A stretch of DNA of 60,557 bases, taken from positions 1 to 60,557 of the forward strand of contig CBFDDM010000002.1 of NCBI GenBank assembly GCA_965603565.1, in the 5' to 3' direction. The notes under the pieces were generated by a model. The model was not told where the DNA came from, did no database searches, and was given only the letters and a program-made list of their open reading frames with translations. Position numbers and translations under genes: made by a program. Shown here piece after piece: positions 5,977 through 33,826 of this stretch; position 1 is the stretch's first letter; every line of letters starts with the position of its first letter. This DNA comes from an uncultured Anaerolineales bacterium (GTDB lineage: Bacteria; Chloroflexota; Anaerolineae; Anaerolineales; E44-bin32).

Positions 5977-5990
5977 AAGGGAAACCGCTG

Positions 5991-8032: not shown

Positions 8033-8034
8033 GA

Positions 8035-8811: not shown

Positions 8812-8856
8812 TCAGATATGATCTTGAGTAGAGAGGATAGACAAAAGGGATTCAAC

Positions 8857-13760: not shown

Positions 13761-16753
13761 TGCACATCCGTTTTGAATTGAACGTAGAACCTGTTGAGAT
13801 TGATGTCGCTGAAGATGCGCTTTTGCTCGATGTACTGCGTGAGGAATTCGGTCTCTTCGGCGTAAAGCATGGCTGTGAGACGGGTGAGTGCGGCGCGTGC
13901 ACGGTGCTGCTCGATGGCAAGCCGGTGAACAGCTGCGTGATGCTGGCTGCACAAGTCGAGGGTCATGCGATCACGACGATCGAATCTGTAGGGGAGTACC
14001 CGGATCAGGGCTGGCGTAAAGGTGTCGGCCTGGACGCAGTCCAGCAGGCGTTTGTCGAGACCGGCGCGATCCAGTGTGGGTTCTGTACGCCTGCGATGAT
14101 ATTGGCGGCACGCTCGCTTTTGGCCAGCAACGCGAATCCCACAGAAGCAGACGTGCGTGAAGCATTATCTGGTGTGTTGTGCCGCTGCACTGGCTACGTT
14201 AAGCCGGTCCAGGCGATCCTGCGCGCCGCAGCGGTGCTCAGAGGGGATCAAGTCGAGCCGATTGAGGGACCGATTCCCGCGCCGCAGGACCTGATCACAC
14301 CGCCACCGGAGGTTGAAGAGACTCAGACCTGGGATACGGGCGATGTGCAGGTTTCGACAGAGACATCCGTAATGCCCCGCATCCAGATTGCCCAGCATCC
14401 GGAACCTCTCCATACGGTCGGTCACCCTGAGCCGAAAGTGGATGCGATCAAGCTCGCCCAAGGAAAGCCTGCGTTCACCGCTGACATCGAGATGCGCGGC
14501 ATGCTCGTCGCTAAAGTGTTGCACAGCCCGGTGGCGCATGCCCGTATCAAACACATCGACGCATCCAAAGCAAGGGCGCTGGAGGGCGTCGCAGCGGTAC
14601 TTACGTGGAAGGATGTGCCCCGTGTGGCTTACTCGACCGCCGGTCAGTCGCATCCGATCCCTGGGCCGCTGGACAGTTTTTCGCTGGATAATAAAGTCCG
14701 ATTTGTCGGTGACCGGGTGGCGTTCGTCGCTGCTGAGAATGAAGCCATCGCCGAGAAGGCGCTCGAGTTGATCGAGGTTGAATATGAACGGTTGCCGGTG
14801 ATCATCGATCCGGAAAAGGCACTGGAAGATGACGCCGTCCAGATCCACGACGAGCCGGAATATGTGAATTTCGATCATTCCGATCCCGAGCGCAACCTGG
14901 CGGCTCAGATCCGCATCGATATCGGCGATGTCGAGAATGGATTCGACGATGCCGATCGTATTTTTGAGGGGACTTATGAGGTCCCCAAGGTGCAGCAGGC
15001 GCACATCGAACCGCACGTGACGGTTACATACTGGGATGAAGATGATCGCCTGGTTATCCGCACCAGCACGCAGGTGCCGTTCCATGTCCGCCGTCAGCTT
15101 TCGCCGGTGCTCGGTTTGCCGGCGAAGCGCATTCGAGTGATCAAGCCGCGCATCGGCGGCGGGTTCGGCGGCAAGCAGGAAGTGCTCATCGAGGATGTCG
15201 CCGCGCACCTTACCATCGCTACCGGGCGGCCCGTGCGTTTTGAGTACACACGCGCCGAGGAGTTCTTTGCATCAAGATCCAGGCATCCGATGCGGATCAA
15301 GATGAAGACCGGCGTCAAGAGAGACGGCACGATCACGGCCAATGAGATGTACGCGTTGAGCGACACTGGCGCCTATGGATGTCACGCGCTGACCGTCACG
15401 GGCAACACCGGGCACAAAGCGATGGCGCTGTACGTCGGTGATGACAAGTATCGCGAGAGCCCAAACATCCGTTTTTACGCGGATATCGTCTACACAAACA
15501 CGCCGCCATCCGGGGCGTACCGCGGCTACGGCGTGCCGCAGGGCTACTGGGCGGTCGAGCGCCACATGGAGCGCATCGTGCGTGAAATGGAATTGGACCC
15601 GCTTGAATTTCGGCTGAAGAACACGCTCAGGGCAGGCGAGATCCACCCCTTCAGCACAGCATGGTCAGAGGGACGTGAACCCAGGCCGGAGACGATCAAC
15701 ACCTGTGGCCTGGAAGACTGCACCAAACAAGGCGCATTAGCGATCGATTGGACAGCCAAATATGGTAAGCAGGAGTGGAATCGGGTTGAGGGCAAGCCGT
15801 ATCTGCGCAAAGGCATAGGCGTTGCGCTGGTGATGCAGGGCACCGCCATCCCTTACCTGGACATGGGCGGGGCGAGCATAAAAATCAATGACGACGGATC
15901 GTTTAACCTTCTGATCGGTGCCACTGATCTGGGGACAGGCTCAGACACCGTGCTTGCTCAGCAGGCGGCCGAGGTGCTTGGTGTCTCCATTGATGACATC
16001 ATTGTTTATTCCTCGGATACAGATTTCACCCCGTTTGATAAAGGCGCTTACGCCTCCAGCACGACTTATATCTCAGGTGCTGCCGTCGTGCGCGCTGCCG
16101 AACAGGTCGCCGAACGCATCCGCTTGCGCGCGGCGAAGATGCTCTCGGAGGAAGGCGAGAACGTTCGACCCGACAACATCCGCCTGGCAGAGAAGCAGGC
16201 CTGGGCGCCCGATGGGCGCTCGGTTTCGCTTGCTGAGGTGGCACTACACTCGCTGCATGAAGAGGATCAGGAGCAGATCATGGCGGTTGGTTCATATATG
16301 TCGCCGGTCTCTCCCCCGCCTTTTGCGGCGCAGTTCGCCGAAGTCACCGTAGATGTTGAGACCGGGCAGGTCGTCGTTGACAAACTGGTCATGGCGGTCG
16401 ATTCTGGTGTGATCGTAAACCCGCTCACGGCTTCCGGCCAGGTCGAGGGCGGCATGACTCAGGCGCTGGGTTATGCGGTCTGCGAAGAGATGCTGTACGA
16501 TGACGAAGGTCGTGCAAGAGAGGTAGACTTTACAGATTATCATATCTTTGCCGCGCACGAGATGCCTGAACTGCAGACGATCTTCGTCGAGACGGTCGAA
16601 CCCTCGCACCCTTTCGGCGTCAAGGCGGTCGCTGAAATCCCGATGGATGGGGTCGCTCCGGCAGTGGCGAACGCAGTGATGGATGCCTGTGGCGCGGATG
16701 TGCTGACCGCGCCGGTCACACCCGAACGGGTCTGGAAAGCACTGGGCGGCTGA
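13760..16753 (+). CDS. Fused [2Fe-2S] + molybdopterin-binding subunit, xanthine dehydrogenase family (set 2)
   Basis: FeS motifs CETGECGACTV, QCGFCTPA and CRCTGY are followed by Mo domains with RIGGGFGGKQE. 997 aa. Confidence 0.88.
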   Translation: MHIRFELNVEPVEIDVAEDALLLDVLREEFGLFGVKHGCETGECGACTVLLDGKPVNSCVMLAAQVEGHAITTIESVGEYPDQGWRKGVGLDAVQQAFVETGAIQCGFCTPAMILAARSLLASNANPTEADVREALSGVLCRCTGYVKPVQAILRAAAVLRGDQVEPIEGPIPAPQDLITPPPEVEETQTWDTGDVQVSTETSVMPRIQIAQHPEPLHTVGHPEPKVDAIKLAQGKPAFTADIEMRGMLVAKVLHSPVAHARIKHIDASKARALEGVAAVLTWKDVPRVAYSTAGQSHPIPGPLDSFSLDNKVRFVGDRVAFVAAENEAIAEKALELIEVEYERLPVIIDPEKALEDDAVQIHDEPEYVNFDHSDPERNLAAQIRIDIGDVENGFDDADRIFEGTYEVPKVQQAHIEPHVTVTYWDEDDRLVIRTSTQVPFHVRRQLSPVLGLPAKRIRVIKPRIGGGFGGKQEVLIEDVAAHLTIATGRPVRFEYTRAEEFFASRSRHPMRIKMKTGVKRDGTITANEMYALSDTGAYGCHALTVTGNTGHKAMALYVGDDKYRESPNIRFYADIVYTNTPPSGAYRGYGVPQGYWAVERHMERIVREMELDPLEFRLKNTLRAGEIHPFSTAWSEGREPRPETINTCGLEDCTKQGALAIDWTAKYGKQEWNRVEGKPYLRKGIGVALVMQGTAIPYLDMGGASIKINDDGSFNLLIGATDLGTGSDTVLAQQAAEVLGVSIDDIIVYSSDTDFTPFDKGAYASSTTYISGAAVVRAAEQVAERIRLRAAKMLSEEGENVRPDNIRLAEKQAWAPDGRSVSLAEVALHSLHEEDQEQIMAVGSYMSPVSPPPFAAQFAEVTVDVETGQVVVDKLVMAVDSGVIVNPLTASGQVEGGMTQALGYAVCEEMLYDDEGRAREVDFTDYHIFAAHEMPELQTIFVETVEPSHPFGVKAVAEIPMDGVAPAVANAVMDACGADVLTAPVTPERVWKALGG

Positions 16754-16784
16754 GCGTACCAGTTTGAGCGAACAGCGAGTATCG

Positions 16785-18131
16785 ATGGCGAATATTTACG
16801 TTGTAGGACATGTCAACCCAGATACGGACGCCATCGCTTCGGCGATGGGCTATGCCTGGTATCGGGACCAGGATTCGGATGAGGAGGTTATCGCGGCGCG
16901 TGGTGGAGCGATTAATGCCCAGACGGCCTGGGTGCTCAACCGCCTGAATCTCGGCGCTCCCGAGCTGCTGACCGATGCCTCCCCGCGGTTCGAATCGGTG
17001 ACGCTGCGATTTGACACGGTTACACCAGACCGGCCGCTGCGGGATGCCTGGGCGATTGCCAACCGCACCGGAACGGTTGCTCCAATCGTTGAAGCGGACA
17101 GAAAGCCGTACGGTCTCGTCACCGGGTTCAGCCTGTTCCGGTCTTTGAGCGATCTGGTCGGAGCGCATCCTGACCGGCAGGATATGAATCTGACCGATTT
17201 GTTCGACCTGCCCAGCAGCGAAGCGGCGGATACGAATGTCCCCAAGTTTCTGCTGGGCTCACGCATCCGCGATTCGCTACAACGGGTGCTGCGGGGCGAG
17301 CGTAATGAATTCTTCGTCGTCGACGAAAAAGATCGTTATGTAGGCGTTTGCCGGCAGCGTGATCTGCTCAATCCTCCACGCCTTCAGCTTATCCTCGTCG
17401 ATCACAATGAGGTTGGGCAGTCTATTCGCTCGTTGGATGAAGCTGATCTGCTGGAGGTTCTCGACCATCACCGCCTGAGTAATCCGCCGACACGCCTGCC
17501 GATCCGGTTCCGGGTCGACCCGGTTGGCAGCACGAGCACGCTTGTCTCCGAGAAGATTGAAGATGCCGGCATGGGTGCACCGCCGGAGCTGGCGGGTCTA
17601 CTGCTGGCAGGTGTGCTCTCGGATACGCTCCTGCTCAGCTCGCCGACTACCACCGATCGCGATCACCGCGCCGCCAAGCGGCTCGCCCGCTGGGCGTTCG
17701 TGGGTGGTTCACCCCTGGAAGGCGAGACGATCGAGTCCTTCGGCAGAGCGCTGCTGCAGGCTGGCGCAGGATTGGCGACGCGCGAACCGATGTCTGTGAT
17801 CACGAGCGACCTGAAAATTTACGACTCATCCGGGATGCATTTCGGCATATCGCAGGTGGAAGTGACGGATCTGGTTGAAGTCGAGGAGCATCTGGCCCCG
17901 TTAAGGGAGGCGCTGAAAGGGCTGATCGACCAGCGCGGTCTAGATTTCGCCATGCTGATGATCACCGACATCGTGGAAGGATCCAGCCGCATACTGATGC
18001 AATCGGCGCCGCCCGTTTTAGCCGAACTGCCTTACAAACGCTCGGAAGACGATGTGCTCGACGCCAGCGGAGTGGTTTCGAGGAAGAAACAGTTGCTGCC
18101 AGTCGTACTGGCGATGCTTGAGGAGCGTTAA
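16785..18131 (+). CDS. DHH-family (family II) inorganic pyrophosphatase with inserted CBS domains
   Basis: NIYVVGHVNPDTDAIASAMGYA DHH motif, central CBS-like insert, DHH/DHHA2 motifs LILVDHNE and VLDHHR. ATG 16785 is preferred over track start TTG 16764. Confidence 0.75.
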   Translation: MANIYVVGHVNPDTDAIASAMGYAWYRDQDSDEEVIAARGGAINAQTAWVLNRLNLGAPELLTDASPRFESVTLRFDTVTPDRPLRDAWAIANRTGTVAPIVEADRKPYGLVTGFSLFRSLSDLVGAHPDRQDMNLTDLFDLPSSEAADTNVPKFLLGSRIRDSLQRVLRGERNEFFVVDEKDRYVGVCRQRDLLNPPRLQLILVDHNEVGQSIRSLDEADLLEVLDHHRLSNPPTRLPIRFRVDPVGSTSTLVSEKIEDAGMGAPPELAGLLLAGVLSDTLLLSSPTTTDRDHRAAKRLARWAFVGGSPLEGETIESFGRALLQAGAGLATREPMSVITSDLKIYDSSGMHFGISQVEVTDLVEVEEHLAPLREALKGLIDQRGLDFAMLMITDIVEGSSRILMQSAPPVLAELPYKRSEDDVLDASGVVSRKKQLLPVVLAMLEER

Positions 18132-18934
18132 TGAGTCTGTACCGCCGCATCTCCGAGCTCGAGGGTCGTGGGGAGCAGGCTGCGCTTGCAACCGTGATCC
18201 GCACACAGGGGTCGGTACCGCGCCACGCCGGGAGCAAGATGATCGTCTACGCCAACGGTACGGCAGAAGGAACGATCGGCGGCGGCGAGATGGAAAGCCG
18301 GGTGATTCAGGTGGGGATCGAGGCGATCGAAGAAGGCAGCACGAAATTGCTGCATTACGATTTCCGCGATCCCTCCGAAGGCGATGTGGGCGTGTGCGGT
18401 GGTGAGATGGAGGTTTTCGTGGAACCGATAAAGATTCCACCTAAATTGGTTGTCGTCGGCGCCGGCCATGTTGGACAGTCACTCGTTCACCTCGGTCACT
18501 GGCTTGGCTATCACGTCGTCGCCTGTGATGACCGTGAGGAATTCGCCTCAAAGACCTATATCCCGGAGGCGGATGAAGTCATACACTGTGAACTCAAGCA
18601 GTTGAGTGAGCACATCGAGGTCCACGCTAATACATTTATCGTTTTCACGACGCGCGGGGTCGATATCGATGTTGAGGCATTACCGGCGTTGCTGAAATCG
18701 CCGGCTGCTTATATCGGGGTGATCGGTTCCCGACGTAGGTGGGAGACGACCGCGAACGCGCTCAGGGAGTCAGGCGTGGCCGAAGAGTCCATCCGCAATG
18801 TCACCTCACCAATGGGCCTGGAGATCAACGCTGAGACCCCGGAGGAGATTGCGGTGAGCATATTCGCTGAAATTATCAAGGTGCAGAAGGGCGGGACGGG
18901 TCGTTCGATGGGCCACGACCCTAAGATGGAATAA
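18131..18934 (+). CDS. xdhC: XdhC/CoxI-family Mo-cofactor insertion chaperone
   Basis: ALATVIRTQGSVPRHAGSKMIV...GTIGGGEME N-domain plus Rossmann-type VVVGAGHVGQ C-domain. Confidence 0.85.
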   Translation: MSLYRRISELEGRGEQAALATVIRTQGSVPRHAGSKMIVYANGTAEGTIGGGEMESRVIQVGIEAIEEGSTKLLHYDFRDPSEGDVGVCGGEMEVFVEPIKIPPKLVVVGAGHVGQSLVHLGHWLGYHVVACDDREEFASKTYIPEADEVIHCELKQLSEHIEVHANTFIVFTTRGVDIDVEALPALLKSPAAYIGVIGSRRRWETTANALRESGVAEESIRNVTSPMGLEINAETPEEIAVSIFAEIIKVQKGGTGRSMGHDPKME

Positions 18935-18955: not shown

Positions 18956-20383
18956 ATGTGGAAACGTTATTACACTCCAAATAACCTCGATCAGGCGCTT
19001 GAACTGCTCGCCGATGCGAGCCCGAAGGCGCGCATCATGGCCGGTGCGACCGATCTCATCCTGGAACTCGAACGCGGGATTCGGCCGGATGTGGATACCG
19101 TGATCGACATCACACGCATCCCGGGGCTGGATTCGATCGTCCTCGAGGATGGTTGGATCCAGCTTGGACCGCTGGTAACCCATAATCACTGCGCAGGATC
19201 CAATTTGATCCGCGATCACGCGTTCGCGCTCGCTCATGCGTGCTGGGAAGTTGGCGCTCCGCAGATTCGCAATCGCGGGACGATCGCTGGCAACCTGATC
19301 ACCGCTTCGCCCGCAAACGATTCGATCACACCGCTGATGGCGTTGGGCGCGCAAGTCACGCTCCGCTCCAAGGAAGGCAAGCGGGTCGTGCAGCTCAGCG
19401 AATTTTATGAAGGCGTGCGCAAAACCGTGATGAAACCCGATGAGGTCATGGTGGCTATCGCCTTCCCGGTTCCTTCAGAGGCGACGCAAACTGCTTTCTA
19501 CAAACTCGGACTGAGAAAGGCTCAGGCGATTTCGGTGGTCAACGCCGCTGCGCTGGTAGAACTCTCCGATGGAAAGGTGCAGATGGCGCGCATAACGCTT
19601 GGTTCGGTCGCGCCCAAGATCATCCATGCCACCGCGGCGGAGGATTACCTGATAGGCAAAGACTTCTCCGACGAGGTCATCGAAGAGGCGGCACGCCTGG
19701 CGATGGATGCCGCCACACCGATCGATGACATTCGCGGGTCGGCCGACTACCGGCGCTACATGGTTGAGGTTTGCGTACGCAGGTCGTTGAAACGTATCGC
19801 AACCGGCGAAGAGCGGGAAGTTATCCCCGAGCATCCCGTCATGCTGTGGGGACCAAAAGAAGCGATCGTGAGAACCACACTGGAGGTGCCATTCGAACAC
19901 GATGGTGATACTGTGATCGAGACGACGATTAACGGCAAGCCCTACCGGTTCGAGAGCGGATATGAGAAGACATTGCTGAGGCTGTTGCGTGAAGAAGGAC
20001 ACCTCACCGGAACGAAGGAAGGCTGCGCCGAGGGCGAGTGTGGGGCCTGCACCGTATTCCTGGACGGCGCGGCTGTGATGGCATGTATGGTGCCTGCGCC
20101 TAGAGCGCACAGGGCTGAGATCGTCACAATTGAGGGTCTCGCCAGCGGGGAGCAGCTGCATCCGATCCAGCAGGGTTTCATCGAGGAAGGCGCTGTGCAG
20201 TGCGGCTACTGCACGCCGGGTTTCCTCATGTCTGGCGCCAAACTGCTCGAAGAACGGCCGACTCCGGATGTCGATGAAATCAAGCAATCGATCACCGGCA
20301 ACCTGTGTCGATGTACTGGCTATTACAAAATTGTGGCTGCTTTTGAGCGAGCAGCCGCACTACTTGAGGAACAGCAGGCTTAA
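18956..20383 (+). CDS. Fused FAD-binding + [2Fe-2S] subunit of Mo hydroxylase (set 3)
   Basis: N-terminal half has MAGATDLILELE and GTIAGNL (FAD). C-terminal half has CAEGECGACTV, QCGYCTPG and CRCTGY (FeS). GAGGGAG RBS. Confidence 0.85.
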   Translation: MWKRYYTPNNLDQALELLADASPKARIMAGATDLILELERGIRPDVDTVIDITRIPGLDSIVLEDGWIQLGPLVTHNHCAGSNLIRDHAFALAHACWEVGAPQIRNRGTIAGNLITASPANDSITPLMALGAQVTLRSKEGKRVVQLSEFYEGVRKTVMKPDEVMVAIAFPVPSEATQTAFYKLGLRKAQAISVVNAAALVELSDGKVQMARITLGSVAPKIIHATAAEDYLIGKDFSDEVIEEAARLAMDAATPIDDIRGSADYRRYMVEVCVRRSLKRIATGEEREVIPEHPVMLWGPKEAIVRTTLEVPFEHDGDTVIETTINGKPYRFESGYEKTLLRLLREEGHLTGTKEGCAEGECGACTVFLDGAAVMACMVPAPRAHRAEIVTIEGLASGEQLHPIQQGFIEEGAVQCGYCTPGFLMSGAKLLEERPTPDVDEIKQSITGNLCRCTGYYKIVAAFERAAALLEEQQA

Positions 20384-20436: not shown

Positions 20437-20817
20437 ATGGGACGAGATACCTTTCGATTCCGGCAGTTGGATAAGGAGCGCGAATCGCGCGGCGAGATTG
20501 ACCCCATCTGGCGAGGGGTCGGATGCCTGATCATCTCCGGCTTTGCGACCGCCGGTTACTTCTTCGCTAATTGGTTTGTGCGTGCCAATGCCGTCAACGG
20601 GTGGATTTACATTCCCCGGGAGGCTTACTATCCATCGTTCGCCCCATTTCTGGGTGATGGACTGCTCATCAAACTTGTGGTCGCGCTGCTCTTCTTATTG
20701 CTCAGCTATGGGCTGATGTCCTTTATCTATGCGGTGTTTTTCCCGATTAAACCGAAGGAAGAGGACGCCCAACCCCCAAGGCGCAGACCGAAGCGGCAGA
20801 AGCGGCGGAAGACCTAG
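20437..20817 (+). CDS. Small membrane protein (2 predicted TM helices, Arg/Lys-rich tail), unknown function
   Basis: 126 aa with two hydrophobic stretches and a C-terminal PPRRRPKRQKRRKT tail. GGGAG RBS. The stop lies 2 nt before the next ATG. Confidence 0.55.
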   Translation: MGRDTFRFRQLDKERESRGEIDPIWRGVGCLIISGFATAGYFFANWFVRANAVNGWIYIPREAYYPSFAPFLGDGLLIKLVVALLFLLLSYGLMSFIYAVFFPIKPKEEDAQPPRRRPKRQKRRKT

Positions 20818-20819: not shown

Positions 20820-22526
20820 ATGGATCGACAAGTCCCCCGGACCGGCTCAGAAGAGATCGAGCTTTATATCCGCACGTACTATTCACTGCTGCGCTCGACG
20901 ACCGATGTGCGTGTGCGTTCGCTGGAGGAAGTGCACACCAACATGGGATCTTCGCTTCATCTTGAAGCGCGCTCGATGAAGCTGGACGTCTCAGCGCTGA
21001 TTTACAGCTCACTGCGCTTGCCGGATTGCATCGTCGATGTCAAACGGGTTGTGCTTGGCCAGAGCCTGCGCGCTTTCATCAAGCGCGGCATCGGCAACAT
21101 CGAGACGTGGGAGATGGCGACGGCCAAGGCGCGTCGACGGCGCTCTTTCTTCGACGGTGATTCGACCCTGGCTTGCTATATCGGCAGCCGTTCTGATATC
21201 GATGATATGGTCCCGATCCTGACCGCCTATCAGATCGAGTGGAACAAGCTCCATCGATTACTGCAAGGTGAGCAGGTAAGGAAATTTCTCGAAGCACCAC
21301 TTGATTCGGAGGAGGGGTTGGCGGTGCTTGCCACCGGGATAGGCGTCGAGACGGAGGAGATTCTACGGCTGCGTACGGTCTGGGAAGATGACTTCTGGTC
21401 GACACTGAAGGCAATATCCGAGGATGAGAAAAACCTGAGCATTCGATTGCTGGCCGGGTCTTTGATGGACTACCGTCAGGCGACACAGAGCTGGTGGGAG
21501 CGTGTGGAAGAGATGGTGCCATCGGTGCTGGATCGACCAGTGTACTTTGTCTCCAGCAATGCACACAGCATTGTCAACCTGATTTCGGGCTATGCGTTGA
21601 GGCACGAGGACGAACTCGTCCGCTACCTGGAATATCCAGAGTGCTCCGACCTACTTATGGAGTGGGAGGACATCAAAGCACGCGAAGTGCCCTCGAGTCG
21701 TGAGAATTTTCTTTACTACGTGCTTAAGAAATATGTGCGGTCTGAAGCCGGAAAACAAGCGCGCATAGACCGAGCCCAGACGGAGATGGGCTCCGGGATA
21801 ACGCGCGTCGAAAGCCTGACGGGCTTTGACGTCCAGGTCCAGGTTTTCTCACTGCGCGACATGATTCCCGATCAGATTGACCCCCGGCTTCAAGTGTCTG
21901 GTTATCAGGACCTGAAGGACAGCGATGCGCTCATCGTCAACATCGATTACCCGCTCGGGATGTCCGCATACGTCATCCTTTCGCACATCGCCACCCGCTT
22001 CGGCGAACTGCGCGGTGCGTACATCATGGGCAAGGCCGCGACACTGAACGGAGTCCTCGGTGACGTTATGATCCCTTCCGTCGTCCATGATGAGCACTCG
22101 CAGAACACATATCTGTTCGAGAACTGCTTCAGCGCAGCCGATATCCATGACGAATTGGTGTATGGAACCGTGCTCGATAACCAGAAGGCCGTCAGTGTGC
22201 GTGGCACCTTCCTGCAAACACCGCAGTACATGGACGTCTTCTACCGTGAGGGTTACACCGATATCGAGATGGAGGCTGGCCCATACCTTTCGAGCGTGTA
22301 TGAGTTATTCCGGCCTAAACGCTACCCGACGGACGAAATTGTAAACATGTATGGCCTTCCGTATGATTTGGGAATACTGCATTACGCCTCGGACACGCCG
22401 CTTACGCAGGGACTCAACCTGGGCGCCGGATCGCTTTCTTATTTCGGTATGGATCCGACGTATGCTACGAGTGTGGCGATCCTGCGGCGCATATTTGATC
22501 TGGAAATCGAGCAATTACGTACATGA
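20820..22526 (+). CDS. AMP-nucleosidase-like protein: unrecognised ~380-aa N-terminal region + nucleoside phosphorylase (PNP/UDP-1) fold C-domain
   Basis: The C-terminal part (IVNIDYPLGMSAYVILSHI..., IMGKAATLNGVLGDVMIPSVVHDEH, TDIEMEAGPYL, ILHYASDTPL) parallels the catalytic domain of AMP nucleosidase and uridine phosphorylase. I recognise no family for the N-terminal part. Confidence 0.55.
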   Translation: MDRQVPRTGSEEIELYIRTYYSLLRSTTDVRVRSLEEVHTNMGSSLHLEARSMKLDVSALIYSSLRLPDCIVDVKRVVLGQSLRAFIKRGIGNIETWEMATAKARRRRSFFDGDSTLACYIGSRSDIDDMVPILTAYQIEWNKLHRLLQGEQVRKFLEAPLDSEEGLAVLATGIGVETEEILRLRTVWEDDFWSTLKAISEDEKNLSIRLLAGSLMDYRQATQSWWERVEEMVPSVLDRPVYFVSSNAHSIVNLISGYALRHEDELVRYLEYPECSDLLMEWEDIKAREVPSSRENFLYYVLKKYVRSEAGKQARIDRAQTEMGSGITRVESLTGFDVQVQVFSLRDMIPDQIDPRLQVSGYQDLKDSDALIVNIDYPLGMSAYVILSHIATRFGELRGAYIMGKAATLNGVLGDVMIPSVVHDEHSQNTYLFENCFSAADIHDELVYGTVLDNQKAVSVRGTFLQTPQYMDVFYREGYTDIEMEAGPYLSSVYELFRPKRYPTDEIVNMYGLPYDLGILHYASDTPLTQGLNLGAGSLSYFGMDPTYATSVAILRRIFDLEIEQLRT

Positions 22527-22574
22527 CGAAAGTGGGCTCGCTGCCCTTTGATTGGTGAAACACAGGAGCATGCA

Positions 22575-24794
22575 ATGACGCTGATTGGCGAATCTTCACT
22601 CCGGGTTGACGCTTACGGTAAGGTGATCGGAGAGACGCTCTACCCGGGCGATATCGACCGACCTAACCAGGCCTATATGAAGATTCTCTTTGCGGGGCGC
22701 CCGCATGCCCGCATCACCCATCTCGACGTCTCCAGTGCGGAAGCCATGGAAGGTGTGCTGGGTGTTTTCACCGCACGGGATGTGCCCAATAACGAGTACG
22801 GCTTGATCATGCCTGACCAGCCCGTGCTGTGCGGGCCTGGTTCTGAAAAACCATATGCCGACCATGTGCGTTTCGTAGGGGATCAGATCGCGGTTGTGGT
22901 TGCGGAGAGCGAGGTTATCGCCGAGAGGGCGATCGCCGAAATCATGGTGGAATTTGAAGAACTGCCCGTGGTTCTCGATCCGGTCGCAGCGATGAAAGAT
23001 GAAAGCGATCTCGTCCATCCAGACAAGGGCACCAACATATTCTGTCACTACCGCATTCGCAAAGGTGAGCTTGAGGATGCATTCGAAGAAGCTGCCGCCG
23101 TGGTTGAGGCGGAATATCACACCCCGGCGCAGGAACATGCGTACCTCCAGCCGGAGGCGGGTCTGGCGTATATCGATGAAGAGGGGCGCATAACTATCGA
23201 GGTCGCCGGGCAATGGACGCACGAAGACCAGGAGCAGGTCGCGCACGCGCTGGATGTTCCACTGGAGAAGGTGCGCATTGTCTACCCGGCTATCGGCGGC
23301 GCATTCGGTGGTCGCGAGGACATGTCGGTGCAGATCGTGCTTGCGCTGGCGGTCATGCGACTGCACGAACGAGGTATCGACCGTCCGATTAAGATCATCT
23401 GGTCGCGAGAAGAATCGATCTTCGGGCATCATAAACGACATCCATTTGTGCTGCGTGCCAGGTGGGCTGCCGATGAAGAAGGTCATGTGACTGCTGCCCA
23501 TATGGAAGTGATCCAGGACGGTGGGGCGTACGCGTACACTTCAACGAAGGTATTGGGCAACGCTACCTTGATGTGCACCGGGCCTTACGAGATCCCCAAT
23601 GTGCATGTCGATGCCTTCTCGGTCTACACAAATCACGTTCCAGGAGGCGCGTTCCGTGGTTTTGGTGGTCCGCAGGGTTGCTTCGCCGCCGAAGCGCAGA
23701 TGGACAAAATCGCAGAGGCGCTGGGCATGGACCCGGTTGAGATCCGCACTCGAAATCTGCTTAAAGAAGGATCGCTGCTATCGGTGATGACCCCGCTGCC
23801 TGAAGGCGTCAGCATCGGTCAGGTCGTCGAGGCGGCCGCATTGAAAGGCGGGTGGACAAAGGGAGAGCGAGGTTGGGTGAAACCGTCTGACAAAGAAGCG
23901 GGCGTTCTCGACCGGGGACCGCGTAAGCGGGGCGTCGGGTTTTCTTGTGGTTTCAAGAACGTCGGCTTCTCATTCGGTGCACCGGAGCGGGCTTTCGCCG
24001 AGATCGAACTGCACGGGGGCATTGAGATCGAAGAGGTTGTGCTGCATCACGCCGGTGCCGATGTCGGGCAGGGAGCGCATACTGTCTTCGCCCAGATGGC
24101 AGCCGAGGCCGTAGGCGTGCCGCTTGAAAAAGTGCGGCTGGACGTCTCTGACACAGCGACGACAAGCGATTCGGGTTCCGCCTCCGCCTCCCGAATGACC
24201 TTCATGGCGGGCAATGCCATCCGCGGTGCGGCAGAAGCTGCCCTGGCAAAGTGGCGCAGCGAGGAGCGACCGGCAATCGCACGGTTTGAATACAAACCGC
24301 CGGCGACGACGCCTCTCGATGATCAGACCGGTGAATCTAACCCCAATTTTGCCTACGGCTATGTGGCACAGGCGGTGAGCGTGGAGGTGGACACCGAAAC
24401 GGGTGAACTGACCATCCTGGATGTTGTTTCGGCCAATGACGTCGGCAAGGCGATCAACCCTCAGCAGGTGGAAGGCCAGATCGAGGGCGGCGTGGTTCAA
24501 GCCGCGGGCTACGCGGTGCTTGAGGATTTCAAACAGGAAGACGGGTACGTACAAACCGACCAGATGTCGACCTACTTGATCCCGACGATCCTCGATATCC
24601 CCGATCGTGTGCAATCAGTTATATTAGAAGTGGAAGACCCGCTCGGACCCTGGGGGGCGCGCGGTATGGCAGAGATGCCATTCATCCCGTTCGCGCCGGC
24701 GATCGTCGCGGCGGTGCACGATGCGGTAGGCGTATGGTACGACGAATTCCCGCTCACACCAGAGCGTATCCTGCGCGGGTTGGGAAAACTATAA
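22575..24794 (+). CDS. Molybdopterin-binding large subunit, xanthine dehydrogenase family (set 3)
   Basis: About 740 aa with AIGGAFGGREDMS, GAFRGFGGPQ and MAEMPFIP motifs. GGAG lies 7 nt before ATG 22575. The track start is TTG 22548. Confidence 0.88.
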   Translation: MTLIGESSLRVDAYGKVIGETLYPGDIDRPNQAYMKILFAGRPHARITHLDVSSAEAMEGVLGVFTARDVPNNEYGLIMPDQPVLCGPGSEKPYADHVRFVGDQIAVVVAESEVIAERAIAEIMVEFEELPVVLDPVAAMKDESDLVHPDKGTNIFCHYRIRKGELEDAFEEAAAVVEAEYHTPAQEHAYLQPEAGLAYIDEEGRITIEVAGQWTHEDQEQVAHALDVPLEKVRIVYPAIGGAFGGREDMSVQIVLALAVMRLHERGIDRPIKIIWSREESIFGHHKRHPFVLRARWAADEEGHVTAAHMEVIQDGGAYAYTSTKVLGNATLMCTGPYEIPNVHVDAFSVYTNHVPGGAFRGFGGPQGCFAAEAQMDKIAEALGMDPVEIRTRNLLKEGSLLSVMTPLPEGVSIGQVVEAAALKGGWTKGERGWVKPSDKEAGVLDRGPRKRGVGFSCGFKNVGFSFGAPERAFAEIELHGGIEIEEVVLHHAGADVGQGAHTVFAQMAAEAVGVPLEKVRLDVSDTATTSDSGSASASRMTFMAGNAIRGAAEAALAKWRSEERPAIARFEYKPPATTPLDDQTGESNPNFAYGYVAQAVSVEVDTETGELTILDVVSANDVGKAINPQQVEGQIEGGVVQAAGYAVLEDFKQEDGYVQTDQMSTYLIPTILDIPDRVQSVILEVEDPLGPWGARGMAEMPFIPFAPAIVAAVHDAVGVWYDEFPLTPERILRGLGKL

Positions 24795-24798
24795 ATTG

Positions 24799-25617
24799 AT
24801 GGATCAAAAAAGACCGCTCGTGTTGATTCGCGGGGGCGGCGATCTGGCCAGCGGCGTTGCGCTGCGGCTGCACCGTTCCGGGTTTGGGGTGCTCATCACC
24901 GAAGTCGAGCAACCACTCGCGGTGCGGCGAGCGGTGGCGTTCGCCGAGGCGATCTACACCGGCGAGATGCAGATTGAGGAAGTGACCGGCCGCCGCGTTC
25001 AAGACATTAAAGAGACAGCCAGCGCAGTACGCGAGCGGGTTATCCCCGTTATTATCGATCCACAAGCGCAGATTCGAGAAGAATTGAAGCCTGCCGCAAT
25101 CATCGACGCGCGCATGCGCAAGAGCGCGCCCGAACTGGCGATCGCAGCCGATGAAGTTGTCATCGGTTTGGGACCGGGCTTCACTGCCGGCCTCGATTGT
25201 CATGCCGTGATCGAAACCAATCGCGGTCATGCAATGGGGCGTGTGATCTGGGATGGTTCCGCGCAGAAGAATACCGGCGTCCCTGAGGCGGTGCAGGGTT
25301 ATGACGTCGACCGTGTATTGAGGGCGCCTGCACACGGCGTTCTCACGGAAGGACTCGATATCGGGACAGTAGTTGAAGAGGGCGATGTATTGGCGCGTGT
25401 GGGTGATCACCCGGTTCAGGCGACTTTCAACGGCGTGCTGCGCGGAATGGTCCATGATGGACTGGAGGTCAACGAAGGAATGAAGATCGGTGATCTGGAC
25501 CCACGCGGTATCGTCGAGCACTGTTTTACCGTGTCGGATAAGGCTCTGGCGATAGGGGGCGGTGTCCTCGAAGCGCTGCTCTCGTTCGATGCGATCCGGA
25601 ATGCTTTAGGTAATTGA
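24799..25617 (+). CDS. yqeB: YqeB-family selenium-dependent molybdenum hydroxylase system protein
   Basis: LVLIRGGGDLASGVALRLHRSGFGVLITEVEQPLAVRRAVAFAEAIYTGE matches my memory of the YqeB/EF2563 family N-terminus. Length is about 270 aa. Confidence 0.7.
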   Translation: MDQKRPLVLIRGGGDLASGVALRLHRSGFGVLITEVEQPLAVRRAVAFAEAIYTGEMQIEEVTGRRVQDIKETASAVRERVIPVIIDPQAQIREELKPAAIIDARMRKSAPELAIAADEVVIGLGPGFTAGLDCHAVIETNRGHAMGRVIWDGSAQKNTGVPEAVQGYDVDRVLRAPAHGVLTEGLDIGTVVEEGDVLARVGDHPVQATFNGVLRGMVHDGLEVNEGMKIGDLDPRGIVEHCFTVSDKALAIGGGVLEALLSFDAIRNALGN

Positions 25618-25618
25618 G

Positions 25619-26950
25619 ATGAAACTTTCGAAGGCATTGCGGGTCGAAGCGGGCCATGTTATTGCATTCGTCGGTGCGGGCGGCAAGACCAGCGCCATTC
25701 GCCAGCTTGTCCAGGAACTTGCTGGCAAGTTCCCTGTGCTGGTCACGACCTCCACCAAAATGGCGCTGGATGAGAAAGATCTCACCGACGAGCATAAGGT
25801 GATCGAGGACGCTGGTGGTTTGCTCTCAGTACTATCAGATTGGGATCGGGAAAGTACATTGCTGCTGACCGCGCCGCAGTTTCCAGATGAGCTAAAGTGG
25901 GATGGTCTGCCGCTCGCGCAGCTTCAGGACGTGATCGAGTTCAGCCGGGAGAAGAAGGTCGTCCTCCTCATCGAAGCGGATGGCGCTGCAGGACGCTCAT
26001 TGAAAGCACCGGCGGAGCATGAGCCGGCCTTGCCACACAACCTGGACTTGCTGGTTCCAGTTGTGGGGATTGATGCTGTCGGTGAAAGCGTCGACGGCGA
26101 TCTTGTCCATCGCTCGGAGCGGTTGCGCGCACTTCTGAATATTGATTCGGGGACAGAGTTGACGGTCGAACATGTCGCAAGGTTGCTCAGGCATCCCTCG
26201 GGTGGCTTGAAAGCGTTGCCTCTGCATGCTGTATTGAGGGTACTCATTAACAAAGTCACCACGAAGGATAGGCTTAAGACCGCCCAACAAATTTCCGAAC
26301 TCGCCCTGGAAGAGCCGAAGATCAAGAGCGTGATAATCGGCGCCATGCAGAAGAGAGAGCCGGTGCGGGAGGCGCGCAGCCGGGTGGCTGCGGTCGTGCT
26401 TGCGGCCGGGGAGTCGAAACGGTTTAAAAGCAATAAGATGCTGCGGAAATGGCACGGCAAACCCTTGCTTGAACATGTTCTCGATGCCGTGAGGGCGAGC
26501 AAGGTGCACCAGAAAGTTCTGGTCCTCGGCCACGAACAAGAAAAGGTCCTGGCAACCGTTAACCACGAGGGTTTCCAGATCGTTCAAAACCAGGACTGGA
26601 AAGAAGGGCAGAGCACATCCGTTCAGGTGGGGCTGGAGGCGGTCATCGATGATGTCGAAGCGGCAATTTTCCCGCTTGGCGATATGCCTAAGGTCGACTC
26701 CGGGCTGATAGACACATTGATCGATCGACACGCCGAGACACTTGCGCCGATCGTCGCACCGCAGGTGGAGGGAGAGTGGGGCAACCCCGTGCTGTTTGAC
26801 AGTGTCACCTTCCCCGTTTTCTCAGAGTTGACCGGCGATCGGGGGGCGAAGAAACTCTTTGCTCAATTTGACGTTGAAGCTGTAAGGTCGGATCCAGCCG
26901 CCGGGTGGGATGTCGATCATCCTGAGGATTTACAGACGACGAGATCGTAA
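25619..26950 (+). CDS. Fusion of YqeC-like selenium-dependent hydroxylase accessory protein and MocA/YgfJ-type Mo-cofactor cytidylyltransferase
   Basis: N-terminal half has VIAFVGAGGKTSAI (YqeC P-loop). C-terminal half has VAAVVLAAGESKRFKSNKMLRKWHGKPLLEHVLD and PLGDMP (MobA-like NTP transferase). Confidence 0.72.
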   Translation: MKLSKALRVEAGHVIAFVGAGGKTSAIRQLVQELAGKFPVLVTTSTKMALDEKDLTDEHKVIEDAGGLLSVLSDWDRESTLLLTAPQFPDELKWDGLPLAQLQDVIEFSREKKVVLLIEADGAAGRSLKAPAEHEPALPHNLDLLVPVVGIDAVGESVDGDLVHRSERLRALLNIDSGTELTVEHVARLLRHPSGGLKALPLHAVLRVLINKVTTKDRLKTAQQISELALEEPKIKSVIIGAMQKREPVREARSRVAAVVLAAGESKRFKSNKMLRKWHGKPLLEHVLDAVRASKVHQKVLVLGHEQEKVLATVNHEGFQIVQNQDWKEGQSTSVQVGLEAVIDDVEAAIFPLGDMPKVDSGLIDTLIDRHAETLAPIVAPQVEGEWGNPVLFDSVTFPVFSELTGDRGAKKLFAQFDVEAVRSDPAAGWDVDHPEDLQTTRS

Positions 26951-30763: not shown

Positions 30764-33700
30764 ATGCTGGAGCTTCGAACGCTCGGTGATCTCCGCATTA
30801 CGGTCGATGGCCGCCCTGCGGCATTGCACTCGCACAAGGCGCAAGCCTTGCTGGTCTATCTGGCGATCGAAGGCGAACCGCAGCCTCGCTCATCGCTAGC
30901 CGCCTTGCTCTGGCCGGAAAGTGATCAAGAGCACGCCAATACCAGCCTGCGCGTCGCCCTCACGACACTCAATAAATCCTGCCGCGATTACCTCAACTGC
31001 AACCGCCAGCGAATAGGCATCGACTGGGATAAACCGGTATGTGCCGACTTGAACGAATTACTGCATTGTGCCGAGAAGGCGGAAGATGATCGCGCCCAGG
31101 AATTCTACAAAGGACCCTTCCTTGCCGGCTTTCATATTCGCGATTCGGAAGCCTTCGAAACCTGGCGCACATGGCAGAATGAACGCTTGATGCGCGTGAT
31201 CACCCGATCCTTTCAGCGCACCATCGATCGTACTTTACGAGGCGATGTCAGCCGCGATCCGGTCGCTCTCTCACAGCAACTCCTGAAGATCGAACCGTTG
31301 GACGAGAGCGCACACCGCGCCATCATGATCACCCACTGGCGAAATGGGAATCACGCAGCAGCGATCGAACAATACCAGGCATGCCTCAACCTGCTACAAA
31401 ACGAGCTGGCCGCCGAGCCTTCGGATCAGACCCGTTCCCTTTATGAGCGCATCCAACGCGGCGACGCCCCGACAACACAGCATCTGCCTTCTGATCGGTC
31501 GACGATACCCCAGAAGCGTCGGCTGATTGGGCGGGAGGAAGAATTGAGCGCCTTGCTCGAGCGAATCGACTCCGAGCAATACCGGCTTGTGACGCTTCTT
31601 GGACCGGGAGGAATCGGGAAAAGTCGTCTGGCGATCGAAGCTGTGCGCAAGGCAGCAGACTGGTTTCCCGATGGCGCCTTCTTCTGCACGCTGGCTTCTG
31701 TTCCATCCCGCGAATTCCTGCTCCCTGCTGTGTCCAGCACCCTCGGCTTTTACGTCGATTCGTGGGTCACCATGCTGGACCCGAAATCCCAACTGCTGGA
31801 TTTCCTCTCCACCCGGAAGATCCTGCTGGCGCTCGATGGATTCGAGCATCTCACCGGATGCGCTGATTTGCTTGCGGATTTCCTGGCGCATGCCCCGCAC
31901 TTGATGCTTCTCGTCACCTCCCGCGAGCGCCTTAAATTAAGCGACGAGTGGGAAATGCCTCTGGAGGGGTTGCATGTCCATAAGGATGAGAAACCGGGAG
32001 TTGATCCCCGCTCTCCCGCCTTCGAGCTCTTCGAACTGCGAATGGCACAGGCGAGCGGCGATCGGCAGCTGGATGGCCCCGAGCGCACAGCCGCGCAGGA
32101 GATCTGTTCGTTAGTCGAGGGAAATCCGCTGGCGATTGAACTAGCGGCGGCATGGAGCGGCGCGCTAGCGCCTTCCAAGATTCTCAACCAGATGCAGGTC
32201 AGCCTGGATGTCCTCACTACCCGCCACCGAGATCTCCCCGAGCAGCATCGCAGCCTGCGAGCGGTGTTCGACCACTCCTGGGACCTGCTGCCGGATCATT
32301 TGCAAAGTACCCTAACCGCAATAGCGGTCTTTCGTGGAACCTTTATCCCTGAAGCAGCCGAAGCCGTGGCGGGAGCCACATGGGTGGACCTCACCGCGCT
32401 TGCTGATCGGAGCCTGGTGCGGTGCAACCCGCTCGGCCGGTATGAACTGCATGCTTTACTGAAGGAATACGCCGTCGAAAAACTGCTCCAGGATGCCCGT
32501 GCCACTGAGCGGGTGCAAAGCGCCCACGCCCGCTATTATCTGGAACTTCTAAGCAGGACAGCGCCGGAGTTTCTCTCGACCGGCATGCTGGCTGCGAGAG
32601 AAGGGGTCGCCAAGGAATTGGCCAACATCTGGCTTGCCCTGGAGTGGGCGATCCAGCACTTCGACGACGAGTGTGTGTATCAAGCCATGGACGATCTTTT
32701 CTCATTTTATGTCGTGCATGGATGGCAGGAGGGCGCCGTGGCGCTCGAATACCTCGTGGGCAGGATCAGTGCATCTCGTGCCGGCGAGAATCAGCAGCAG
32801 TATTGGTCCCGTCCTCTCTATCGAGCGGCGATTGCCAGGCAAGCATGGTTCCTGGCCCATCTCGGCCGGACGGAGGAATGTCAATCCCTTTCGGAGCGCT
32901 GCCTGGCGTGGATGTCGACAGATGACATTCCGGATGATCGCTCGATCTGTTTGAACAATCTGGGGATCTGCGCCTGCCTGCTGGGTCAGTCCGATAAGGG
33001 TATCGAATATCTCGAGCAGGCTATCGCTGTTGGGCAGGGGTATGCCAGGCCGGTCTTCCCCTCGTACTATCTGTGGCTCGGGTATATCCGTTTCCTCCAG
33101 GGCTTATACGCGGAGAGCATGACCGAGTACCAGATCTGCTACGATCTCTTCGAAACACAAGGAAACCAGCCAGGAATGGCGTTTGCCCTGAGCAAGATGG
33201 GGCTGAGCGCCGATGGTATGGGCTCTTATGATCAAGGCCTGGTTTATCACCGCCGTGCGCTTGAAATCTTCCGGGCGACGAACCATCTTTCCGGACAGGC
33301 CTATACCTACAGCCGGATGAGTGTGGATGCTTACGGCTTGGGTGATTACGGCCAGTCTGTGGAATGGGCAGAGCAGGGACTCAAGCGTTTTGACGCGCTC
33401 GGCCATCGCTGGGGCATATCCAGCTCCCGCTGTCGTCTTGCCTTTGCTGAGATCGGTTTAGGCAAGCTCGAGCAGGCGAACGGGCATCTTCTCGATGCGC
33501 TCAGCCGGGCCCAAGAACATCAAATGACGCCTTTGATGCTGTATGCGATCCTTGGGCTTGCCTGCGTACTCCTCCTCGAAGGTGAGCTCGAGCGGGCAAG
33601 GGAGCTGCACTACACCGTCGCGGCCAACCCGCAAACGCCGAAGATCTACCTCGATCTAGCAGCGCGCTGGCTGGATGAGCCGCGTCACATCGGCACGGAG

Positions 33701-33826
33701 ACAGCCCCGGTCGTGGTGCCCACCTTCGAAGTCATGCAGACATCGCCTCCACATTCGGATCTGGATGCGCTCGCCTCGCAGCTGCTCGAGCAGTCGCGCT
33801 CCCAAACTTCGAAGTCGTGGGGTTAA
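30764..33826 (+). CDS. AfsR/SARP-like regulator: winged-helix/BTAD + NB-ARC P-loop NTPase + TPR repeats
   Basis: 1020 aa. The N-terminus LRTLGDLRITVDGRPA...KAQALLVYLA plus a BTAD-type helical region is followed by LLGPGGIGKSRLA (Walker A) and C-terminal TPR-like repeats. Confidence 0.8.
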   Translation: MLELRTLGDLRITVDGRPAALHSHKAQALLVYLAIEGEPQPRSSLAALLWPESDQEHANTSLRVALTTLNKSCRDYLNCNRQRIGIDWDKPVCADLNELLHCAEKAEDDRAQEFYKGPFLAGFHIRDSEAFETWRTWQNERLMRVITRSFQRTIDRTLRGDVSRDPVALSQQLLKIEPLDESAHRAIMITHWRNGNHAAAIEQYQACLNLLQNELAAEPSDQTRSLYERIQRGDAPTTQHLPSDRSTIPQKRRLIGREEELSALLERIDSEQYRLVTLLGPGGIGKSRLAIEAVRKAADWFPDGAFFCTLASVPSREFLLPAVSSTLGFYVDSWVTMLDPKSQLLDFLSTRKILLALDGFEHLTGCADLLADFLAHAPHLMLLVTSRERLKLSDEWEMPLEGLHVHKDEKPGVDPRSPAFELFELRMAQASGDRQLDGPERTAAQEICSLVEGNPLAIELAAAWSGALAPSKILNQMQVSLDVLTTRHRDLPEQHRSLRAVFDHSWDLLPDHLQSTLTAIAVFRGTFIPEAAEAVAGATWVDLTALADRSLVRCNPLGRYELHALLKEYAVEKLLQDARATERVQSAHARYYLELLSRTAPEFLSTGMLAAREGVAKELANIWLALEWAIQHFDDECVYQAMDDLFSFYVVHGWQEGAVALEYLVGRISASRAGENQQQYWSRPLYRAAIARQAWFLAHLGRTEECQSLSERCLAWMSTDDIPDDRSICLNNLGICACLLGQSDKGIEYLEQAIAVGQGYARPVFPSYYLWLGYIRFLQGLYAESMTEYQICYDLFETQGNQPGMAFALSKMGLSADGMGSYDQGLVYHRRALEIFRATNHLSGQAYTYSRMSVDAYGLGDYGQSVEWAEQGLKRFDALGHRWGISSSRCRLAFAEIGLGKLEQANGHLLDALSRAQEHQMTPLMLYAILGLACVLLLEGELERARELHYTVAANPQTPKIYLDLAARWLDEPRHIGTETAPVVVPTFEVMQTSPPHSDLDALASQLLEQSRSQTSKSWG

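Follow-up and report, generated by a model that had tools for sequence, protein, structure and literature searches.

YqeB and a YqeC-MocA fusion protein encoded at the end of a molybdenum hydroxylase operon in an uncultured Anaerolineales bacterium

Domain composition of YqeB and of the YqeC-MocA fusion

The stretch analysed here, called the window in the following, is a whole metagenome contig of 60.5 kb from an uncultured Anaerolineales bacterium, and its plus strand carries an unbroken run of genes from position 81 to 26950, downstream of which the genes lie on the opposite strand. The last two genes of this run, the subject of this work, encode YqeB and a single polypeptide composed of YqeC and a MocA-like nucleotidyltransferase domain (yqeC::mocA), and they lie within a molybdenum (Mo) hydroxylase locus, with an XdhC protein and a subunit binding FAD and iron-sulfur (FeS) clusters encoded in the same run (Table 1). 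The Mo large-subunit gene upstream terminates with TAA at 24792-24794, and yqeB begins two to five bases past this stop, according to whether TTG at 24796 or ATG at 24799 is chosen as the start codon, the latter being the coordinate used in an earlier note on this DNA that was made from the sequence alone; its stop codon is TGA at 25615-25617. The yqeC::mocA gene starts with ATG at 25619, one base past yqeB, and is free of stop codons up to 26950, yqeB and yqeC occurring together as immediate neighbours.

YqeB was identified by the test that had been named for it beforehand, a search with the TIGR03309 model, against which it scores 349.8 bits (cutoff, 220) with residues 9-263 covering model positions 1-255 of 256; the earlier note had taken this open reading frame (ORF) for YqeB, and rightly. 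The protein aligns with residues 259-524 of Escherichia coli YqeB at 51% identity (E 4e-88), and the N-terminal half of the E. coli protein, which is XdhC-like, is absent from the stand-alone YqeB of the window. The TIGR03309 family has been reported only from selD-positive genomes, and its cutoff divides the selD-linked subfamily from more distant homologs (PMC2276186). No Pfam family was matched by YqeB, and no sequence relative of it was found in the PDB. That YqeB might be a paralog of the XdhC Rossmann domain was unsupported, as a local hhalign comparison of a 63-sequence YqeB alignment with a 23-sequence XdhC alignment gave a probability of 25% over 32 columns, which cover the first beta-alpha-beta unit only.

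The N-terminal half of the fusion, assigned to YqeC in the earlier note as well, exceeds the cutoffs of both YqeC models, with 115.9 bits against PF19842 (cutoff, 27.6; residues 15-167) and 151.3 bits against TIGR03172 (cutoff, 73.05; residues 14-228). In a pairwise comparison, E. coli YqeC shares 29% identity with this domain (E 7e-20), and all four motifs, GAGGKTS, IEADG, KAPxEHEP and VHR, align between the two. Conservation was counted over 78 aligned fusion proteins, in all of which G19, G21, G22 and K23 of the P-loop, the residues E119, D121, G122, K129, P131, E135 and P136, and R165 are invariant; position 24 is T or S, and H164-R165 is counted as a family-specific motif. The P-loop, G-x-G-G-K-[TS], is shorter than the canonical GxxxxGK[ST] and is assigned as a Walker motif by pattern alone. 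Likewise by pattern, E119-A-D121-G122 resembles the Glu-containing Walker B motif (ExxG) of the G3E GTPases, and most homologs have N-[QK]-x-[DE] at positions 211-214 (71 of the 78 with N, 67 with D or E). Modelled alone, the YqeC domain reached a predicted local distance difference test score (pLDDT) of 95.0, and the best Foldseek matches of the model were HypB, MeaB, IcmF, FlhF, SRP54/FtsY, UreG and MinD (E 8e-5 to 4e-3), P-loop proteins of the SIMIBI class that act in metal or cofactor insertion or as regulated dimers, the Foldseek probability being about 1.0 despite template modelling (TM) scores of 0.40-0.51. A profile search of PDB sequences with the domain gave nothing significant. The model thus suggests a weak but consistent structural link between YqeC and the cofactor-insertion NTPases.

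The C-terminal part of the fusion scores 123.1 bits against PF12804 NTP_transf_3 (cutoff, 27; residues 258-416), and its best NCBIfam match is TIGR03310 MocA/YgfJ, at 150.5 bits under a cutoff of 186.45. The MocA/YgfJ-type cytidylyltransferase proposed from the sequence alone is hence borne out as to the Pfam family and the best named match and falls short at the TIGR03310 cutoff; because this equivalog cutoff is not reached, the domain is called MocA-like here, not MocA. Its profile matches in the PDB are 3d5n (E 7e-35) and Rv0371c (2we9; E 2e-33), against which Foldseek gave TM scores of 0.85-0.91, and superposition on 3d5n, Rv0371c (2we9/2wee) and E. coli MobA (1e5k) gave TM scores of 0.78-0.91, all normalised to the target. 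Full-length E. coli MocA shares 24% identity with the domain. The motifs for nucleotide and metal binding are intact and do not vary across the 78 fusions, all of which keep L261, A262, G264, R268 and K273 (A263 is found in 72) as well as G-Q-S-x-S, D355-x-P357, N-P-V-L-F-D and G-D-x-G. The L261-A-A-G-x-S-x-R268 motif of the window aligns to TAAGLSSRMGQWK of E. coli MocA, and its L-A-A-G and G-Q-S-T-S align to T-A-A-G and G-L-L-T-S of that protein. Neumann et al. are said to have found in 2011 that the regions aligned to T-A-A-G and G-L-L-T-S set the specificity for CTP versus GTP. The motif alignment to E. coli MocA would point to CTP over GTP, as a suggestion only.

The two parts are encoded as one uninterrupted ORF of 443 aa, as the earlier note had read it, and an AlphaFold2 model of the whole fusion (30-sequence alignment) has a pLDDT of 93.4 and a predicted TM score (pTM) of 0.92. 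Because pLDDT is 95-98 over residues 241-260 and pTM is 0.92, no flexible linker is expected between YqeC and the MocA-like domain; in the model the last strand of YqeC passes directly into the first strand of the transferase. Stand-alone YqeC representatives terminate at the same ...PV.E... strand where the fusion carries on.

Occurrence of the fusion and its genomic setting

The YqeC-MocA fusion is the standard, lineage-typical architecture in Chloroflexota. A search of 5.8 billion proteins with the fusion protein gave 1146 matches, and the best 120 90%-identity clusters of these all carry both Pfam domains in about 445 aa, their named members being Anaerolineales or Anaerolineae metagenome-assembled genomes (MAGs). 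When one genome of each GTDB species was scanned, at least 586 stretches were confirmed, and the counts of related loci given here refer to the best 80 of them. All 80 belong to Chloroflexota, with lineages that include Anaerolineales, Caldilineaceae, Ardenticatena, Thermoflexales, Herpetosiphon and others, and in every one the YqeC and MocA parts lie in one frame, within one ORF of 435-480 codons. The closest NCBI genome, the Anaerolineales MAG GCA_029210945.1, has the same gene in the same operon at 79% identity, and an identical 443-aa protein is encoded on an independent 24-kb contig (k141_505299 of ENA ERZ27241918). Near-complete genomes that bear the fusion include CP070764.1 and JAXLVS010000001.1. 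With the YqeC domain alone as query, an exhaustive HMMER search gave 4084 50%-identity cluster representatives at E <= 0.001, and 97 of the best 150 of these are at least 400 aa long.

Since the window is a metagenome contig, the fusion might be ascribed to a stop codon lost, or a frameshift introduced, in assembly. This explanation is already refuted, as all 80 related loci carry both domains in a single ORF, and the identical protein on the independent contig, the two-domain composition of the best 120 clusters and the confidently modelled junction speak against it too. The implication of the earlier note that such a fusion is unusual did not hold either, given the 80 Chloroflexota loci and an entry for Moorella thermoacetica dating from 2008 (PMC2432076). 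In haloarchaea, Peptoclostridium, Clostridioides difficile (PMC11448449) and E. coli, yqeC and mocA are neighbours and stand in this order; the YqeC-MocA pairing is old and widespread. The names in public use for the fusion are 'selenium cofactor biosynthesis protein YqeC' and 'molybdenum cofactor cytidylyltransferase', and such proteins would be better named as bifunctional than as 'YqeC' or 'MocA' alone.

About 35 of the 80 related loci, including L004, L012, L019, L022, L023, L039 and L044, have another, free-standing MocA-like gene right after the fusion, and the window is without a second copy. One protein, P0016, has the composition YqeC-MocA-MocA in 672 aa.

The operon has a conserved order, namely pyrophosphatase, XdhC, FAD/FeS subunit, 126-aa ORF, DUF6909, Mo subunit, YqeB and YqeC::MocA. 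yqeB is directly upstream of the fusion in 56 of the 76 loci with enough upstream sequence, and in many related loci yqeB is preceded by orthologs of the Mo subunit (58-86% identity), of the FAD/FeS subunit and of XdhC. The Mo large subunit, whose best NCBIfam match is PucD (570.7 bits, under the cutoff of 783.65), is the probable client of the maturation genes. XdhC scores 123 bits against TIGR02964 and 240 bits against NF045664, under the cutoff in both cases. The stop codon of the pyrophosphatase-like gene overlaps the xdhC start, and its position upstream of xdhC is kept in 15 sources; its product could clear the pyrophosphate arising from a cytidylyltransferase. The DUF6909 gene separates the genes for the FAD/FeS subunit and the Mo subunit of one enzyme, and just upstream of it lies the conserved 126-aa ORF (20437-20817), which, as read from its sequence, possibly encodes a membrane protein. 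For DUF6909 no NCBIfam name and no PDB sequence relative were found, and the first impression that it ends in a nucleoside-phosphorylase-like domain gained no support from the PDB sequence search.

With SsnA, a hydantoinase and two further enzymes of the xanthine dehydrogenase (XDH) family, the operon makes up a supercluster, in which the FeS/Mo protein at 2544-5354 is best matched by the selenium-dependent XDH model (787 bits, under the cutoff of 830). Genes of this set are known from the ygeV-ygfO island of E. coli and from the uric acid (2,8-dioxopurine) cluster of clostridia; no YgfK, YgeW, YgeY or YgeX was identified in the window. In Clostridium sporogenes and E. coli, SsnA and HyuA open both rings of reduced 2,8-dioxopurine, and the XDH and DOPDH hydroxylases of C. 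sporogenes need SelD (bioRxiv 10.1101/2025.04.24.650524). A block of F420-related genes lies in the middle of the Mo-hydroxylase cluster, and two related loci have orthologs (77-81% identity) of its LLM protein, an F420-type luciferase-like oxidoreductase, close to the fusion. The place of the absent YgfK (DOPOR) might be taken by an F420-dependent reductase, and the cluster may represent an F420-linked form of the selenium-dependent pathway for uric acid (2,8-dioxopurine).

Elsewhere in the window, a T-box leader (54357-54659, minus strand; 100.7 bits, cutoff 93) is found immediately upstream of the gene for a pyridoxal phosphate (PLP)-dependent enzyme of the PALP family, and a 6S RNA gene (40541-40713, plus strand; 69 bits, cutoff 46.4) stands just ahead of recA. 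Genes for a ThiF-rhodanese protein (MoeZ/MoeB-like), a thioredoxin-like protein, a DUF4395 protein and a second PALP enzyme lie together at 54945-58868 (minus strand), which may be a sulfur-carrier-type cluster and appears unrelated to the Mo cluster. A BTAD / NB-ARC / TPR regulator of the SARP/STAND type (1020 aa; 30764-33826, plus strand) is encoded about 4 kb downstream of the cluster.

Table 1. Positions of the genes, domains and motifs in the window
Feature	Position	Strand	Size, content and basis
D-hydantoinase	81-1502	+	TIGR02033, 530 bits (cutoff 393)
FAD subunit, then FeS/Mo protein	1652-5354	+	FeS/Mo protein at 2544-5354
SsnA	5973-7346	+	TIGR03314, 478 bits (cutoff 455.5)
F420 block	7358-12440	+	Fno-like NADP oxidoreductase, CofE, nitroreductase (FbiB-C-like), CofD, CofC, LLM oxidoreductase
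YgfM-like and XdhD-like pair	13011-16753	+	Family scans
CBS-DHH-DHHA2 protein, Mn-dependent inorganic pyrophosphatase-like	16764-18131	+	DHH, CBS, DHHA2; NF011443, 321 bits (cutoff 335)
XdhC-family molybdenum cofactor (Moco) chaperone	18131-18934	+	267 aa; XdhC_CoxI, XdhC_C; conserved in 25 sources
FAD + 2x[2Fe-2S] subunit	18956-20383	+	475 aa; FAD_binding_5, CO_deh_flav_C, Fer2, Fer2_2; 35 sources
DUF6909 protein	20820-22526	+	568 aa; PF21850, 750 bits, full length; conserved position in 15 sources
Mo large subunit, XDH-family hydroxylase	22548-24794	+	748 aa; Ald_Xan_dh_C, MoCoBD_1, MoCoBD_2
yqeB	24796-25617	+	273 aa; stand-alone counterpart of the E. coli YqeB C-terminal half
yqeC::mocA fusion gene	25619-26950	+	443 aa; one ORF; PF19842 and PF12804 on the same polypeptide
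YqeC domain (aa 1-250), P-loop NTPase-like fold	25619-26368	+	TIGR03172, model
P-loop G19-A-G-G-K23-T24	25673-25690	+	Alignment of 78 fusion proteins
E119-A-D121-G122, then K129-A-P-x-x-H-E135-P136	25973-26026	+	Alignment of 78 fusion proteins
MocA-like nucleotidyltransferase domain (aa 254-443)	26378-26947	+	PF12804, PDB profile matches, Foldseek
Nucleotide-binding motif L261-A-A-G-x-S-x-R268 ... K273	26399-26437	+	Alignment of 78 fusion proteins
recA	40858-41892		Followed by recX and the RNase Y gene
PLP-dependent (PALP) enzyme	52934-54340	-	468 aa; family scan

Selenium and the proposed route of cofactor maturation

Based on these findings, we propose that the two genes serve cofactor maturation at the end of an operon encoding an XDH-family Mo hydroxylase, and we lean, with moderate confidence, towards the following scheme. 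First, the MocA-like domain would attach CMP from CTP to Mo-molybdopterin (Mo-MPT), yielding molybdopterin cytosine dinucleotide (MCD) and pyrophosphate, and the pyrophosphatase-like gene beside xdhC could, as a speculation, pull this pyrophosphate-releasing step forward. Then the YqeC module, P-loop NTPase-like and rigidly joined to the transferase, could use nucleotide binding or hydrolysis to control the release of the unstable MCD. YqeB and the separate XdhC would receive the cofactor and hold it during exchange of the terminal Mo ligand, the ligand installed being selenium from selenophosphate if the genome has SelD and sulfur otherwise, and both proteins would finally insert the cofactor into the apo large subunit encoded just upstream.

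A selenium step is suggested by the YqeB score together with the restriction of TIGR03309 to selD-positive genomes, by SsnA and by the near-cutoff match to the selenium-dependent XDH model, and selenium dependence of the hydroxylase is plausible from this gene content. The selenium-cofactor trait has been taken as SelD, YqeB and YqeC together (Zhang 2008, Peng 2016), and phylogenetic profiles show YqeC together with SelD and YqeB (PMC2276186; PMC2432076). In C. difficile, deletion of yqeB resulted in selD-mutant-like behaviour and deletion of yqeC had no phenotype (PMC11448449); by analogy with these genetics, YqeB would be the selenium-critical factor and YqeC a helper.

No selD was found in the window. 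Pfam scans of all its ORFs of at least 150 aa revealed no AIRS/AIRS_C protein, and a tblastn search at E <= 1e-5, with an E. coli SelD query, found no selD there and recovered SelD in L044, a related Anaerolineales MAG locus. The window has no tRNA genes, hence no tRNA-Sec, and neither a Moco riboswitch nor another relevant RNA was found in it. Among the organisms surveyed for HP1 and HP2 (yqeB and yqeC), selD was near these genes in only 5 of 32 (PMC2432076), and therefore a selD-free window of 60 kb is the expected case. The earlier note, which had stressed that these markers stand without selD in view, was thus accurate as to the window, and its observation carries no information, as selD is nearby in 5 of 32 organisms and 1 of 80 loci; the absence of selD near yqeB and yqeC says nothing on selenium use.

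The single related locus with selD nearby is L044, where the gene spans 14422-15465 and has an in-frame TGA at the catalytic position (C-A-G-U-A-S-K); this SelD is therefore a selenoprotein. It lies 7 kb from the fusion, and because genes for a UDP-glucose dehydrogenase, a UDP-GlcNAc 2-epimerase and a Band-7 protein separate the two, their proximity is treated as coincidence. L044 shows only that selD and the fusion occur in one genome. SelD homologs of the L044 type are abundant in public assemblies, one of them labelled Anaerolineales, and the best 120 are all close relatives of the query (68-100% identity). Most of these 120 are annotated with 316 aa, as though gene prediction had truncated them at the same codon. 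In L044 the fusion follows a protein with MOSC_N and MOSC domains (4509-5426), not YqeB.

Several points weigh against the proposed scheme. With respect to selenium, the window has no selD and only one of the 80 related loci has it within 10 kb of the fusion, no Mo subunit of the three in the window reaches the cutoff of a known selenium-dependent equivalog, and a classical XdhC encoded in the operon suggests that maturation takes the sulfur route at least in part. With respect to the fusion, CTP specificity is not certain because the MocA-like domain scores under the TIGR03310 equivalog cutoff, and YqeC may be dispensable or redundant, since its deletion is silent in C. difficile. The guanine-specificity-like motif at positions 211-214 reads N-K-V-T in the window protein, and the fold likeness of YqeC to G3E/SRP-type GTPases is weak (TM 0.40-0.51; root-mean-square deviation 6-10 Å). 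An analogy to MobB was considered and set aside, as MobB is not among the top 50 Foldseek matches of YqeC and no PDB sequence match is significant; therefore only the broader description as a SIMIBI-like P-loop fold has been kept.

In a rival reading, the module would be independent of selenium, the fusion serving as the general MCD synthase of the lineage and YqeB as a second XdhC-like chaperone for a sulfurated cofactor. About 11 of 76 loci have the fusion without any yqeB inside 10 kb. Neighbouring genes were scanned at four of these loci; at L059, L071 and L075 they are unrelated housekeeping genes (MsrB, cupin, acyltransferase, Ppx/GppA and diacylglycerol kinase), and at L018 the fusion stands next to genes for SsnA and for a dihydroorotate-dehydrogenase-like Fe-S protein. 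Organisms lacking SelD have been found with homologs of HP1 and HP2, four of them with HP2 (PMC2432076), E. coli YqeB was formerly regarded as just a second XdhC homologue (PMC2997495), and the silent yqeC deletion, the XdhC gene in the operon and the lack of selD linkage in 79 of the 80 loci agree with a selenium-independent module as well. Against it stand a YqeB that scores 130 bits over the TIGR03309 cutoff, a cluster holding SsnA, a hydantoinase and a protein like the selenium-dependent XDH when the corresponding C. sporogenes XDH and DOPDH need SelD, the plentiful similar SelD homologs, including the Anaerolineales one, and at least one fusion-bearing species that has selD on the same contig. 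We consider selenium independence possible and yet rather unlikely.

The earlier note had further proposed that the fusion couples cytidylylation to selenium delivery, a reasonable inference that assumes YqeC to deliver selenium. In a form of this idea that we judge improbable, the P-loop of YqeC would bind selenophosphate instead of a nucleoside triphosphate, and selenium would be passed to the Mo centre of MCD on the fused MocA domain. The phylogenetic co-occurrence of YqeC with SelD and YqeB, the nature of the P-loop as a phosphate-binding element, the invariant K-A-P-x-x-H-E-P and H164-R165 motifs, which have no assigned role, and the rigid junction of the model are all consistent with this. 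There is, however, no direct evidence of YqeC binding selenium or selenophosphate, yqeC deletion is silent where selD and yqeB deletions are not (PMC11448449), HP2 is found in SelD-lacking organisms, some fusion loci have no neighbouring yqeB, and the nearest folds of YqeC are those of nucleotide-dependent insertases.

Returning to the proposed scheme, in which YqeC acts on the release of MCD, the fusion might be read as a Rosetta stone: YqeC would be the nucleotide-driven partner of MocA, not a selenium carrier, gating MCD release to YqeB and XdhC in a maturation line co-encoded with its client, and it would relate to MocA as MobB and the G3E insertases relate to their clients. This more specific reading is tentative, and we regard it as doubtful. 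A release gate would explain why, in C. difficile, deletion of yqeC is silent and that of yqeB is not, and, if the reading is true, the whole Anaerolineae maturation line (pyrophosphatase, XdhC, YqeB and YqeC::MocA) would lie in one operon with the client enzyme.

The loading of the selenium ligand onto the Mo cofactor is the least understood cellular use of selenium, and the YqeC-MocA fusion offers a single soluble polypeptide for probing an NTPase role of YqeC and its docking on YqeB and XdhC. The families and their clustering had been recorded before, as had even the fusion, and no concept is changed by this work; what it adds is how widely the fusion occurs in Chloroflexota, the rigid junction, the conserved motifs and the weak structural link of YqeC to cofactor-insertion NTPases.

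Comparison with known systems

The hand-over of cofactor from MocA to PaoD or XdhC, described in E. coli and Rhodobacter by the Leimkuhler laboratory, involves the same components as the window operon. MocA adds CMP to Mo-MPT to give MCD (PMC2997495), and PaoD, a chaperone of the XdhC type, takes MCD from MocA, such chaperones protecting the cofactor, mediating sulfuration or exchange of the terminal ligand and inserting the cofactor (PMC3909100). That system differs in receiving sulfur via a cysteine desulfurase and in working without a YqeC-like P-loop partner; in the window neither a desulfurase nor SelD was found.

MobA/MobB, including the bifunctional MobA-MobB (NF011056), and the G3E GTPases HypB, UreG and MeaB pair or fuse a P-loop NTPase with an enzyme of a labile metal cofactor, or with its client, and the YqeC-MocA fusion would be a similar pairing. 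The fusion differs from these systems in its order, P-loop first and transferase second, and YqeC has no detectable sequence similarity to them, its TM scores being those given above.

Haft and Self proposed in 2008 that yqeB, yqeC and mocA (TIGR03309, TIGR03172 and TIGR03310) are accessory genes of selenium-dependent molybdenum hydroxylases. As the earlier note correctly stated, the three genes are separate neighbours in E. coli; in K-12 they are adjacent, with mocA (ygfJ) on the opposite strand. There the same three families adjoin each other in a purine/hydantoin catabolism cluster, and the E. coli locus and the window both have SsnA, hydantoinase and XDH-family enzymes. The two differ in what is joined, since in E. 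coli YqeB is fused to an XdhC-like half and YqeC and MocA are separate, whereas in Chloroflexota XdhC and YqeB are separate and YqeC and MocA are joined.

A precedent for the fusion is in Firmicutes, another phylum. Zhang et al. (2008) noted that MobA-related and XdhC proteins are sometimes fused to HP1 or HP2, and in their Table 1 the Moorella thermoacetica gene at 2089404-2090771 is scored both as HP2 and as COG2068 MobA-related (PMC2432076). At about 1.37 kb, against 1.33 kb in the window, this gene has the same architecture, as likened by the table entry, and it too lies in a neighbourhood of yqeB, xdhC and Mo-hydroxylase genes; it was given as a table entry only, and no mechanistic conclusion was drawn from it (PMC2432076). 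The same survey recorded fusions of HP1 with a MobA-related protein in Carboxydothermus, Dorea and two Ruminococcus species, and of HP1 with XdhC in E. coli, Aeromonas and Haloarcula (PMC2432076). The XdhC, YqeB, YqeC and MocA modules are thus combined in three different fusion pairings across lineages, and the pairing of YqeC with MocA is the one that typifies Chloroflexota.

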